Shown piece after piece: positions 48,032 to 54,715 of a stretch of 64,000 nucleotides of DNA. Source of the stretch: Hadesarchaea archaeon (GTDB taxonomy: Archaea; Hadarchaeota; Hadarchaeia; Hadarchaeales; Hadarchaeaceae); contig JAPDJH010000001.1 of the NCBI GenBank assembly GCA_029259175.1, forward strand, positions 64,001 through 128,000, written 5' to 3'. The position numbers and the translations under genes are program-made. Position 1 is the stretch's first letter, and each line of letters starts with the position of its first letter. The notes under the pieces were generated by a model, which saw nothing but the letters and a program-made list of their open reading frames with translations, searched no databases and had not been told where the DNA came from.

Positions 48032-48874
48032 TTAACCCCCTCGTTCGCGTGCTCGCTCCGACGCTCGCTCGATCGCGCGGTCCAGCCGACTGGAGAGAGA
48101 AGCCCTTCCGCTGATCTTCAGCCGCAGTAGCTTTCGGGCGAGCTCACGAATGGCACGGCTCGCGGCGCTGTTGGGATATGCGGCCACCACCGGGAGATTT
48201 TCGCGGAAGGCCTCGTCCACCGCTTTGTCGAACGGCACGACTCCCAAAACGCGTGCGATTCGAGAGGCCTTCTCGCTCCACTGTTCCCGGCGCGTGCCGC
48301 GCATCAGCTTGGAGAGGACGACTCCGAGCGGTTTCACGCCCATCAATTCTTCGAGTCCCCGGGCAGTCGCTAGAGTGGAGTTGATGGAGTCGTCGTTCGC
48401 CTCGCACACGTAGAGCACGCGGTCAGCCGCCGCCGTGAGAATGAGGTGCTCGTACGAGACGGATGCGGGCGTATCGATGAACACGAAGGAGAACTCGGAT
48501 CGGAGGTCCTCTATCATGCGCTCGAAAATCTTACGCACTCGTTCCATTCGGGATGATACATCTCCGTGTAAAGGAAAGAAGCGCCCACCGGCTGGCATCA
48601 CCGCGAGGTTCGGGTAAAGGAGCGAGCCGTCGGACGCCAGCTGGCAGGTGTAAACCGCGTCCCTCCAGTTCCGCTTGCCCGAGAGCACGTCGGCTAGCGA
48701 GGCCTCGCGGGCAGGACACAGCTTCAGCTCTACAGAGCGCACGTGCAAATCCCCGTCGATGAGGAGAACACGGTCGCGCGGTTTGAGCTGGGCCACCCAG
48801 ATGGCCAAACCCATGGCCACCGTGGTCTTGGACACTCCTCCTTTGGTCCCGACTACGGCTATGACCGCACCCAT
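48032..48874 (-). CDS. MinD/ParA family ATPase
   Basis: KGGVSKTT, IDGD, FIDTPA, VPFD..V. Confidence 0.9.
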   Translation of the reverse strand: MGAVIAVVGTKGGVSKTTVAMGLAIWVAQLKPRDRVLLIDGDLHVRSVELKLCPAREASLADVLSGKRNWRDAVYTCQLASDGSLLYPNLAVMPAGGRFFPLHGDVSSRMERVRKIFERMIEDLRSEFSFVFIDTPASVSYEHLILTAAADRVLYVCEANDDSINSTLATARGLEELMGVKPLGVVLSKLMRGTRREQWSEKASRIARVLGVVPFDKAVDEAFRENLPVVAAYPNSAASRAIRELARKLLRLKISGRASLSSRLDRAIERASERARERGG

Positions 48875-48880
48875 GGAAAC

Positions 48881-49249
48881 TCACACTGCCAAGTCGGGTC
48901 TCCTGTAAATTTGAACCCGGATGTCTGCGCGCCGGCTCACAAGCACCTTGCGAACGCCCCCCTCTTTCACGTCCTTCCGGTACACGAGGCCTGCGCGCTC
49001 CAGAATCCGGAGGTGGTGGAGCACGCGGCTCACATCCATGCGCTTGCCCGTGCTTCGCTCCAGAGATCGAACGAGCTCGGACTGGAAGAGGGGGCCATCG
49101 TCTAGCAACTCGTACATCTGCCGGCGAAGGGGGTGCTGAAGAGCTCGAAAGATCGCGTATGGCTCGGAGACCTCTTTCCAGCCATCATCGCGCTTGAGTG
49201 CGAGCACCGGCTTTCCCGTTTTCTCGATGCGTCCGCCCATCCTGGTCAC
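48881..49249 (-). CDS. ArsR/SmtB-type wHTH regulator
   Basis: FRALQHPLRRQM...HHLRILERAGLV. Confidence 0.85.
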   Translation of the reverse strand: MTRMGGRIEKTGKPVLALKRDDGWKEVSEPYAIFRALQHPLRRQMYELLDDGPLFQSELVRSLERSTGKRMDVSRVLHHLRILERAGLVYRKDVKEGGVRKVLVSRRADIRVQIYRRPDLAV

Positions 49250-49254
49250 CGAAA

Positions 49255-49540
49255 CCTAACACGGCTTCACCCGAAGACATGGCAGGTCGGTTTCCAAGCT
49301 CCGCGGGGAGCGGAGCCCCCGGATACCAGGGATCTCCGGGTAGCCTCCGTCGCGCGCGACCTCATCGTGCACCAGACCGCTGGCCTGGTGCAGGGCGGTA
49401 AGCCCGCTTCCCGTGCTTAGCCCACGCCTCGGACTTCCACCGCCTTCATCCGGCGCGACACCGCGCGGGATCTCATCCGGAGATGAGCGCAGGGATTTAA
49501 GTCGCTTTGGGGGAGAGGTGCCCGAAAATAACCTTTCGGT
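49255..49540 (-). ncRNA. Candidate structured ncRNA, family unassigned
   Basis: At least 8 helices including two crossing long-range helices (see findings); strand inferred from G-U pairs and minus-strand TATA-like boxes. Confidence 0.65.
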
Positions 49541-49674
49541 GCGGTCAGGATTTATGAGGTTATATTGGGTTATCGGCAACTATCACTCACCTCCCCCTCT
49601 CCTTGGGCTCTCAGGGTTTTTATACCGGGTGGACGGGCGAAAAACAAAATTAGGCTTTCACAGAGAGTGTTAGG

Positions 49675-50490
49675 ATGCTCGGCGTGGGGCTAATCGGGTG
49701 CGGATCCATAGGCACGGCTTTGGCGAGAGCCATAGACCGCGGAAGGGCTGGAAACACCAGGTTAATGGTGGTGTATGACCTCAACCCCCAAGCGGCTAAA
49801 AAACTGGTGGCTGGTCTCAAGCAGAGGCCCAGAATCGCTCGAAGGGCAGATGAGGTCTATCGCGATCGCCGTGTGAGGCTCGTGATAGAAGCCGCATCGC
49901 AGAAGGCGGTGAGGGAATTCGGGGAGCGCATCTTGCGGGCGCGAAAGGACCTGATCGTGCTCAGCGTTGGGGCCCTTGCGGACGGCTCGCTGAGAAAAAG
50001 GTTGGAGAAGACGGCTTTGAAAAACGGTTGCAAGATATACATTCCGTCTGGAGCCGTTGTCGGTATCGATGGTGTCCGGGCAGCCAGCATAGATCAAGTA
50101 AGCAGGGTGGTGCTCACGACGCGAAAACCGCCAAGGGCCCTCGCCAGAAATCCGCTGGTGGGGAAGGAAATTGTGAAGCTGAAGCGGCCGAAAGTGGTCT
50201 TCGAGGGACCCGCCCGGAAGGCTGTTCGAGCATTTCCGGCGAGTGTGAACGTTGCAGCGACTCTTAGCCTCGCGGGGGTTGGCTTCGACAAAACTTGGGT
50301 CAGGATAGTGGCGGATCCGAGTTTGAAGCGCAACGTGCACGAGATCCGGATCGAGGGGCGGGCCGGGCGAATCCTCACGCGAACCGAAAACCTCCCGATG
50401 CGCGAAGCACCGGGCACCAGCAAGCTCGCCGCCCTGTCCACCATCCGGCTGCTGCGCAATCTCACAGAACCAACATACATAGGGGCGTGA
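49675..50490 (+). CDS. nadX: L-aspartate dehydrogenase
   Basis: GLIGCGSIG, EAASQ, SVGALAD, PSGAVVGID, TRKPP, NVAATLSLA. Confidence 0.93.
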   Translation: MLGVGLIGCGSIGTALARAIDRGRAGNTRLMVVYDLNPQAAKKLVAGLKQRPRIARRADEVYRDRRVRLVIEAASQKAVREFGERILRARKDLIVLSVGALADGSLRKRLEKTALKNGCKIYIPSGAVVGIDGVRAASIDQVSRVVLTTRKPPRALARNPLVGKEIVKLKRPKVVFEGPARKAVRAFPASVNVAATLSLAGVGFDKTWVRIVADPSLKRNVHEIRIEGRAGRILTRTENLPMREAPGTSKLAALSTIRLLRNLTEPTYIGA

Positions 50491-54623: not shown

Positions 54624-54715
54624 CCCGCGGTAACTCAGCCTGGTAGAGTGGCCGGCTGTAGACCCGGACGGCTGAAACCGGCATGTCGGGGGTTCAAATC
54701 CCCCCCGCGGGACCA
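54624..54715 (+). tRNA. tRNA-Tyr (GTA) with 15-nt intron at 37/38, CCA encoded
   Basis: CCCGCGG/CCGCGGG acceptor stem; GCCGG-CTGTAG[54662-54676]A-CCGGC; GGTTCAAATCC. Confidence 0.92.

Follow-up and report, generated by a model that had tools for sequence, protein, structure and literature searches.

Within a window of 64,000 nucleotides from a Hadesarchaea archaeon (contig JAPDJH010000001.1, the whole stretch that was analysed) a large structured RNA is encoded on the minus strand, directly upstream of an arsR-like and a minD/ParA-like gene. With fair confidence we identify this RNA as the omega (right-end) RNA of a TnpB-type transposon of the IS607 family, and the copy in the window as an orphan cassette at the arsR start. 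We make this identification because in complete copies of the element the RNA overlaps the 3′ end of a gene for a protein with a predicted Cas12f/TnpB fold, with an IS607-type recombinase gene upstream in some loci. The element is patchily distributed, multicopy and sharp-ended, that is, transposon-like and unlike a host RNA or a conserved leader of arsR-minD. A first-pass annotation, made from the letters of the sequence, had seen a structured and possibly pseudoknotted RNA at 49255-49540. Its description of the sequence and its placement directly 5′ of arsR-minD agree with the window; the extent that it gave lies inside the feature, which is wider and reaches from 49241 to 49587 or 49594.

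Copies of the element and the linked protein

A blastn search with 49240-49600 matched 10 of 41 related genomes, and the matches are patchy and multicopy: 11-15 in genome G037, of which several lie at contig ends, and 4 and 3 in G030 and in the genome of the window. The 255-nt core has matches in 6 of the 65 genomes of the class. The hosts are Hadesarchaea/Hadarchaeota and one metagenome-assembled genome (MAG) of the Promethearchaeati (Asgard), and nine metagenome contigs also carry the element; among viral contigs there were 45 pattern matches, none of them confirmed. Copies are 89-91% identical across families and adjoin unrelated genes. Homologues across archaea, on which the first-pass annotation had made its proposal depend, were thus found in Hadesarchaea and in Asgard-type genomes. 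The conserved cellular RNA of archaea that it had considered can be set aside, as the RNA occurs in so few genomes of the class, at so many places in one genome and at the 3′ end of a transposon gene.

Homology stops sharply after ...GACCAGG. All copies end in ...ACC[AT]GG, and the bases that follow differ in every copy. In the window the last base of the element is 49241 and the A of the arsR ATG is 49240. TnpB systems take their guide from the flank 3′ of the right end (PMC10097598); the presumed guide of the window copy would be the first 20 nt past the element (49221..49240, minus strand), which are the first arsR codons. At three loci of one Asgard-type genome (L076, L086 and L092) the ATATGGTAAG segment is duplicated in tandem shortly before the right end, within the last ~45 nt, so that two in-frame stop-codon motifs are present.

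The link to a protein gene is strict. At locus L011 of G030 an open frame of 427 amino acids (aa) has the RNA core at its 3′ end, and in all 14 complete protein-linked copies of the Hades type the RNA overlaps the 3′ end of a gene of ~420 aa. The frame runs through the RNA and stops at a conserved TAG/TAA ~15-20 nt before the element end. The position of the stop is the same in all 14 complete Hades-type copies and in all 10 complete copies of a second set, 8 of which are new to the RNA alignment described below. A relic of this stop codon from the lost tnpB-like gene, TAG, is still seen in the window at 49258-49256 (minus strand).

What kind of protein is it? A search of 5.8 billion proteins gave 337 relatives, mostly of ~410-440 aa, some of which are named 'IS605 OrfB family transposase' or 'IS200/IS605 family accessory protein TnpB-related protein'. 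Their named sources include Hadesarchaea, Freyarchaeota, Njordarchaeota, Hydrothermarchaeales, Methanophagales and Methanospirare; the homologues of ANME-1/Methanophagales share 52% protein identity (only the proteins were compared). The precomputed Pfam label on the family is PF27229. An AlphaFold2 model was built from 14 sequences and compared with the PDB by Foldseek. The best 10 matches are all Cas12f, followed by Cas12k, ISFba1 TnpB and Fanzor2, with E down to 2.8e-10 and probability 1.00 at template-modelling (TM) scores of 0.3-0.43. By this model the linked protein is predicted to be a TnpB/Cas12-type RuvC nuclease. The alignment shows an invariant D in ALDVNAGH and an invariant G at the position of the RuvC-II glutamate of TnpB; the distant relatives L063 and L065 keep E there. 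Later in the chain follows an invariant S-E, RuvC-III is replaced by an invariant D-x-H-K, and a CxxC zinc ribbon is absent.

At locus L051 an intact tnpA of the MerR-HTH/resolvase type (Resolvase E 3.9e-26, HTH_17, MerR) lies directly upstream of the tnpB-like gene. Broken or partial tnpA genes are found at the same place in L043, L052, L074 and copies of G037, and tnpA is also present beside the distant relatives L063 and L064; the window copy and L011 lack it. Since this resolvase-type gene precedes the tnpB-like gene, the full element appears to be IS607-like, in the order left end, tnpA, tnpB and RNA/right end. No Y1 transposase was found among the 27 neighbouring open reading frames (ORFs) that were scanned; these are ordinary, unrelated host genes.

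The overlap of RNA and gene raises the question on which level the shared stretch is conserved. In the gene body, pairwise diversity at codon positions 1, 2 and 3 is ~0.17-0.26, 0.09-0.18 and 0.44-0.54. Codon-pattern conservation of this kind, which would have spoken for a coding sequence, was looked for in the RNA-overlapping tail as well; there the values are flat (0.196, 0.168 and 0.203), without codon periodicity. The constraint in the tail is thus on nucleotides and not on codons. The compensatory pairs of the stems give radical amino-acid changes in the tail, and the tail is predicted to be disordered (residues 353-409 of the AlphaFold2 model score below 50 in the predicted local distance difference test, pLDDT). 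These results also bear on a small protein that could be read from the window copy, a 107-aa frame at 49579-49256 (minus strand) that begins with TTG after GGAGGTGA. Both the window copy and L002 (710-1036, 108 aa) keep this frame open, the deletion junction leaves it fused in frame to the old tnpB tail in these two protein-less copies, and the other two frames through the RNA carry 2-6 stops in the linked copies. The lack of codon periodicity, however, largely refutes the view that the conservation is that of a protein, and no Pfam family matches the tail; we give this view hardly any credence. As the periodicity is missing, the frame of 107-108 aa is probably a by-product.

Fold of the RNA

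The minus strand folds at -143.5 kcal/mol (z -3.03), and none of 100 shuffled sequences folds as well, whereas the fold of the plus strand (z -0.18) is no better than that of shuffles. Many consensus G-U pairs would become A-C if read on the other strand. Taken with the compensatory changes below, this bears out the large structured RNA on the minus strand that the first-pass annotation had proposed. Rfam does not name it. At gathering score the whole window gives only two tRNAs and nothing at the RNA, and a permissive scan (E up to 10) of 49150-49750 gives only a chance match to a long noncoding RNA (17.4 bits against a gathering score of 45). The same scan of one Asgard copy likewise matches no family. 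The RNA is neither a signal recognition particle RNA nor an RNase P RNA, as had been stated before: Rfam matches are lacking, and the archaeal RNase P RNA of the genome lies on another contig (165.3 bits). We also considered an RNase P-like reading of GGAAGUCCG...CGGGCUUACC and rejected it; with the bona fide RNase P RNA elsewhere in the genome the resemblance of GGAAGUCCG is a coincidence, and the long helix involved is unsupported (see below).

For the consensus structure 24 sequences were aligned with MAFFT, not fitted to structure: 16 Hades-type copies and 8 far more diverged Asgard-type copies from the phylum of the genome bearing L046, in which 12 of 400 genomes have a TnpB-like protein. 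The structure was predicted with RNAalifold, and 500 shuffles as well as partners slid by 1-3 columns served as controls. The consensus has 65 pairs, 42 of which show compensatory double changes as compared with 23.0 in shuffles. Of all cells 95.6% are paired (83.4% in shuffles, 36-47% in the slid controls), and the covariation score is 0.450 against 0.216. None of the 500 shuffles reaches the observed value for pairing, double changes or covariation. These covariation figures overstate independence, because the structure was predicted and counted on one and the same alignment and because the copies are related; the shuffle counts overstate it for the latter reason as well. The window copy retains 64 of the 65 pairs.

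All coordinates of the fold are given on the minus strand. The omega RNA scaffold of ~250 nt (49241..49491) begins where homology to all other copies begins and holds the 65 consensus pairs. Its first module (49411..49468) is closed by a long-range helix, 49468-49463 : 49416-49411, which is 98.6% paired with double changes in 5 of 6 pairs; CCCGCG:CGCGGG becomes CUCUUC:GGAGAG in the Asgard copies and is fully compensated. This helix had been missed in the first-pass annotation. It encloses two further helices (49459-57 : 49422-20 and 49456-52 : 49428-24), a hairpin (49444-42 : 49434-32) and a conserved AUGA...GA internal loop, which is k-turn-like by motif only. Then comes a four-way junction (49342..49408) with the closing helix 49408-06 : 49344-42 and hairpins at 49405-02 : 49396-93, 49392-49368 and 49360-57 : 49352-49, the last one flanked by conserved GAUGA (49366-62) and GGAG (49348-45). 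The helices of the junction (helices 5 to 9) are 87.5-100% paired, with double changes in 15 of 22 pairs. Two hairpins follow at 49297..49340, first 49340-49318 and then 49317-49297 (helices 10 to 13, 93.8-98.6% paired), and finally a 3′ stem at 49253..49288, 49288-84 : 49257-53 with inner pairs (helices 14 to 16, 92-95% paired), within which the relic stop codon lies.

The last six bases of the scaffold, ACCAGG (49241..49246), form the pseudoknot strand next to the presumed guide. They pair with the loop CCUGGU (49330-49325) of hairpin 49340-49318 in 97.2% of cells; shuffles give 90.1%, with 0 of 500 as high, and slid controls 8-62%. Compensation is seen in 8 of 24 sequences, U-A to A-U in 7 and G-C to A-U in 1. 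The same pairing of loop and end, together with the sharp end, is also visible in the relatives L063 and L064 at 36% protein identity. A covarying pseudoknot thus exists as had been suspected, though not the one formed by two crossing helices of the first-pass annotation. Of these, helix A (49284-89 : 49357-62) has 72.9% of its cells paired and helix B (49349-55 : 49453-59) 50-80%, and their crossing is unsupported because both clash with local helices that are 94-99% paired. A long bulged helix, GGCGGU-GG-AAGUCCG : CGGGCUU-ACCGCC, fares no better. It is 82.7% paired, nearly all through invariant bases, one of its pairs holds in only 4 of 24 sequences, and it is incompatible with two small covarying hairpins whose pairing is 100%. 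The local hairpins of the annotation, on the other hand, are found again in the consensus: 49298-316 as helices 12/13 (94-96% of cells paired, double changes in 7 of 7 pairs), 49318-340 as helix 10 (98.6%) and 49368-92 as helices 7/8 (99% and 87.5%). Hairpin 49472-87 has support in an 18-sequence set, with 2 covarying pairs.

The GAUGA columns are among the most conserved of the alignment. A43, T44 and G45 are invariant and A46 is conserved in at least 90%; in the second GAUGA A127 and G129 are invariant, T128 and A130 reach at least 90%, and the matching G62-A63 and G145-A146 are invariant. A k-turn consists of a helix, a 3-nt bulge, tandem sheared G-A pairs and a second helix and is bound by L7Ae. 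The two conserved AUGA-R...stem...GA modules flank covarying hairpins and, judged by their motif, may be k-turn variants, although the bulge would be of 4 nt and one of the modules sits in the four-way junction. A literature search found no paper linking TnpB RNAs with k-turns or L7Ae.

The two AUGA...GA motifs and a conserved unpaired UUGAAAAC stretch have no assigned role, and with 250 nt the RNA is long compared with the 116-nt functional scaffold of ISDra2. These features, and the silence of the literature on k-turns, would suit a structured RNA with a function of its own, a ribozyme or another ribonucleoprotein, for which the element would be no more than a vehicle. The place of the RNA, its sharp end at the boundary, the pseudoknot of this end and the strict linkage with the TnpB-like gene nevertheless all fit an omega RNA, and even at E up to 10 Rfam has no ribozyme or other family for it. 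We therefore regard an independent function as very unlikely.

We suggest that the omega RNA operates as follows. The full transposon comprises a left end, a tnpA for a serine recombinase, the tnpB-like gene and the omega RNA/right end. In complete copies the RNA overlaps the last ~80 codons of the tnpB-like gene and ends exactly at the transposon boundary. Its multi-helix scaffold, with the last six bases pseudoknotted to a hairpin loop, would be bound by the TnpB-like nuclease, by analogy with TnpB of ISDra2. The flanking host sequence could then serve as guide for cutting element-free alleles beside a target-adjacent motif. The first-pass annotation, which had listed a ribonucleoprotein scaffold among its possibilities, would in this respect have been right. 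The window copy is a non-autonomous (MITE/PATE-like) derivative from which both protein genes were deleted.

The protein-less copy in front of arsR

Upstream of the scaffold the window retains a left-end remnant (49492..49587, minus strand). It starts with AGTGATAGTTGCCGATAAC and holds the hairpin 49522-49539, which the first-pass annotation had counted with the RNA; this hairpin belongs to the transposon left end and is common to three close copies only. The remnant can be aligned with the sequence directly before the tnpB-like gene of L011/L056 (82% over 97 nt), and also with L002. The deletion junction between left end and RNA lies at ~49491-49494, and L002, which is 89% identical and sits in another genome with other neighbours, has the same junction. 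The window copy is therefore a protein-less derivative that appears to have moved as such, and two copies with one junction suggest that the cassette could be mobilised in trans. Within the left end there is a TATA-like box, ACTTAAAT (49502-49495, minus strand), which in L056 is found ~42 nt before the start of the tnpB-like gene. As both protein genes are deleted, it now stands ~25 nt ahead of the scaffold core. The box could act as a promoter; with the usual archaeal spacing, transcription would begin near 49473, shortly ahead of the first long-range helix.

A 36-nt stretch of the left end, 49496-49531 on the minus strand (TTTCGG..ACC..CCCCAAAGCG.CTTAAA), recurs at 83-89% identity at four loci (L007, L008, L010 and L014) in four other Hadesarchaeal genomes. 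There it is located 30-35 nt upstream of the start codons of different genes, by eye one helicase-like and one with a TnpB-like N-terminus, and could represent a promoter cassette or solo left-end remnants. Its core TTTCGG[TG][GC]ACC equals the right-end terminus. The resulting direct repeat, common to both ends, might mark the sites of the recombinase.

Outside the left end lies GGAGGTG (49588..49594, minus strand). Each of the 11 distinct left ends of the Hades type is preceded by the pattern GG[AT]G[GAC][TCA]G, mostly GGAGGTG, beyond which the DNA is unrelated; the Asgard-type copies have AGGTGGT, AGGAGGA or ATGGTGGT at the same place. The motif resembles a ribosome-binding site of the Shine-Dalgarno type. 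It is a candidate target/transposon-adjacent motif (TAM) and may as well be simply the outermost bases of the left end. As to the other side of the insertion, the right end lies 1, 5 and 10 nt before the start codons of arsR in the window, of ribosomal protein L1 at L049 and of a pyruvate:ferredoxin oxidoreductase subunit at L076. In 8-9 of 31 insertions the start of an ORF of 77 aa or more is found within 15 nt of the right end, compared with 12.7% of the 32,672 positions used as control (p 0.036 to 0.012, binomial); of the downstream ORFs the three just named were checked, and all three are real genes. A preference for insertion near gene starts is thus suggestive only.

Does the element belong to arsR-minD? 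The element probably is the 5′ leader of these genes at present, judged from its place, as a side effect of its insertion. One could go further and assume that the cassette was domesticated as a structured leader or cis-regulator, for instance through an L7Ae-type k-turn binder or a guide that directs repression to the arsR start. The element abuts the arsR ATG and at its right end carries GGTGA 6 nt ahead of it, a T-run terminator between the RNA and arsR is not seen in the window sequence, the AUGA...GA motifs are conserved, and 64 of 65 pairs are retained while the other two copies in the genome have decayed, one to 73% identity and one to a 60-nt fragment. A recent arrival, however, explains the intactness equally well. 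By DNA search no empty site was matched in any of three genomes of the same genus (3/3); a search with the MinD-like protein located arsR-minD in one of the three, G001. There the MinD-like protein is 60% identical, the upstream spacer is 77 nt, the neighbour is a different one and the element is absent. The RNA is therefore not a conserved leader of arsR-minD. In G030 the cassette stands at 89% identity beside unrelated genes, and the proposal of the first-pass annotation, a conserved cis-regulator tied to arsR-minD or to regulator genes in general, fails on these grounds. Domestication of the window copy is in our view quite unlikely.

The sequence libraries add little to this. In a run search two metatranscriptome runs had small shares of the sampled words, and 6 DNA runs had half of them or more. 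Contigs of the RNA libraries cover 48919-49148 (inside arsR, at depth 2) and 49241-49300; the latter contigs carry the flanks of another partial copy (G000:C16), and one 33-nt match is a foreign contig of high depth. An element-free allele of the window site was not seen in four runs. Logan DNA contigs of two runs break within the last 60 nt of the element (49241-49300), as repeats do.

A bolder idea combines several of these observations. The cassette could be a self-promoted mobile guide-RNA gene that acts in trans with the TnpB-like protein of another replicon, uses the Shine-Dalgarno-like GGAGGTG as TAM and rewires the genes at its landing sites. With GGAGGTG as TAM it would land between ribosome-binding sites and start codons, as at arsR and elsewhere at ribosomal protein L1 and the pyruvate:ferredoxin oxidoreductase subunit. 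The rewiring would then supply these genes with the promoter of the cassette, with a k-turn-bearing leader of 250 nt to which L7Ae may bind, and with GGTGA as a substitute ribosome-binding site. We consider this scenario unlikely, if conceivable.

Several points weigh against our assignment as an omega RNA, beside the shared alignment behind the covariation figures. In NCBIfam the first 346 residues of the L011 protein (P0001) match guided_TnpB with E 2.5e-05 and TIGR01766 with E 3e-04; the former score, 23.7 bits, is below the curated cut-off of 100. A Pfam search with P0001 gave nothing relevant, and a sequence search of the PDB with the protein profile only two chance matches (E 0.5-0.6). 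The structural model is of moderate confidence (pLDDT 66.8, predicted TM score 0.43), and the Foldseek TM-scores are low as given above. All linked copies keep the frame through the RNA open and have stops in the other two, so that translation of the tail may be under some selection. GGAGGTG is a candidate TAM only, and the left boundary may lie at 49587 or at 49594. The metatranscriptome contigs give no cover that can be assigned to the window RNA, which also tells against a domesticated leader. Finally, a cognate tnpB-like gene was not found in the assembly (90.9% complete) with a single protein and the family profile as queries; in the window's genome the profile hit only translated RNA tails, and hence no partner is known in this genome. 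For this reason the window copy is most likely an orphan, recently arrived. The genome does encode an unrelated canonical TnpB (154.6 bits). Fragments of a canonical TnpB gene with internal stops are present at G000:C3:10166-15884 (L013, L103-L105), ~2 kb from the decayed second RNA copy, and the region looks like a graveyard of insertion sequences.

The genes around the element are those of the host. The arsR-like gene (48884-49240, minus strand; Pfam HTH_5/arsR E 5.3e-07, ATG 49240-49238) and the minD/ParA-like gene (48035-48874, minus strand; families AAA_31, CbiA and ParA) form a pair (48032..49240) directly downstream of and outside the element. The spacer 49250-49675 separates them from a divergent aspartate dehydrogenase gene on the plus strand. 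Elsewhere in the window the tRNA gene at 54624-54712 (plus strand) has an 18-nt insertion beside the anticodon loop, as expected for an archaeal tRNA intron.

Comparison with known systems

With this assignment a false lead is removed, as the RNA is not a new cellular ribozyme or riboswitch-like leader. Omega RNAs as a kind are already known, and this archaeal family is without a curated description in Rfam; what we add is a covariation-backed secondary structure with a pseudoknot for a family that is absent from Rfam. Interest in compact thermophilic TnpB systems comes from genome editing, and testing one requires a defined scaffold first of all.

A close parallel in architecture is the omega RNA (reRNA) of ISDra2 TnpB from Deinococcus radiodurans, which overlaps tnpB residues 335-408 up to position -10, with a C-terminal part that is disordered and dispensable (PMC10097598). 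Here too the RNA overlaps the tnpB 3′ end and the right end, the stop of the gene falls a few bases short of the scaffold end, and the C-terminus encoded in the overlap is predicted to be disordered. In ISDra2 the bases -5 to -3 form a pseudoknot, and the functional scaffold is 116 nt (PMC10097598). The guide-adjacent bases likewise make a pseudoknot in our RNA, and the flank outside the right end would be the guide. Unlike the ISDra2 RNA with its 116-nt core, ours has ~250 nt and ~15 helices, and sequence similarity between the two is not detectable. The partner protein differs by its rearranged RuvC site and the lack of a zinc finger, the recombinase is of the serine and not of the Y1 type, and the window copy is without any protein genes.

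Rearranged TnpB clades, among them RIIr, RIIIr and archaeal Ser-6-type branches, are described by Altae-Tran et al. 2023 (PMC10691335). Their rearrangements include a change of E to G for which a glutamate on the next strand compensates, a D-to-H exchange in RuvC-III and the loss of the zinc finger, and some of the branches, one of them linked to a serine recombinase, are almost exclusively archaeal (PMC10691335). The protein described here resembles these clades in the G for the RuvC-II glutamate with a later conserved glutamate, the histidine in RuvC-III, the lost C4 zinc finger, the archaeal hosts and the linkage to a serine recombinase; the likeness is one of description, and we assign it to no named branch. 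The passages of that account which treat these clades are without a description of the RNA structure found here. The RNA family belongs to a zinc-finger-less, RuvC-rearranged TnpB clade spread through archaea of the deep subsurface and of vents (Hadesarchaea, Asgard lineages and ANME-1 relatives).

Two further groups of guide RNAs have to be compared. The Rfam scans, which presumably include the RAGATH families, matched neither of them. The haloarchaeal sotRNAs (Rfam RF02656 and RF02657) are sense-overlapping transcripts at tnpB 3′ ends that are now regarded as omega RNAs (PMC12558985). They are also archaeal and have the same location, but RF02656 and RF02657 give no match at E up to 10, and phylum and TnpB clade are different. 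The RAGATH-18-derived reRNAs are guide RNAs that co-occur downstream of IS607 TnpB genes (PMC11061315) and so share with our RNA the place behind the TnpB of IS607-type elements; what sets them apart here is the missing match in the Rfam scan.

The window copy itself illustrates decay into promoter-plus-guide cassettes exactly at gene starts, which could alter the expression of host genes. For such a cassette there are also precedents. PATEs and MITEs are protein-less derivatives of the IS200/IS605 type that retain the ends and the guide RNA. The window copy is like them in that its left end is fused to the right end without protein genes in between, and in that the same junction is found in two genomes at different insertion sites.

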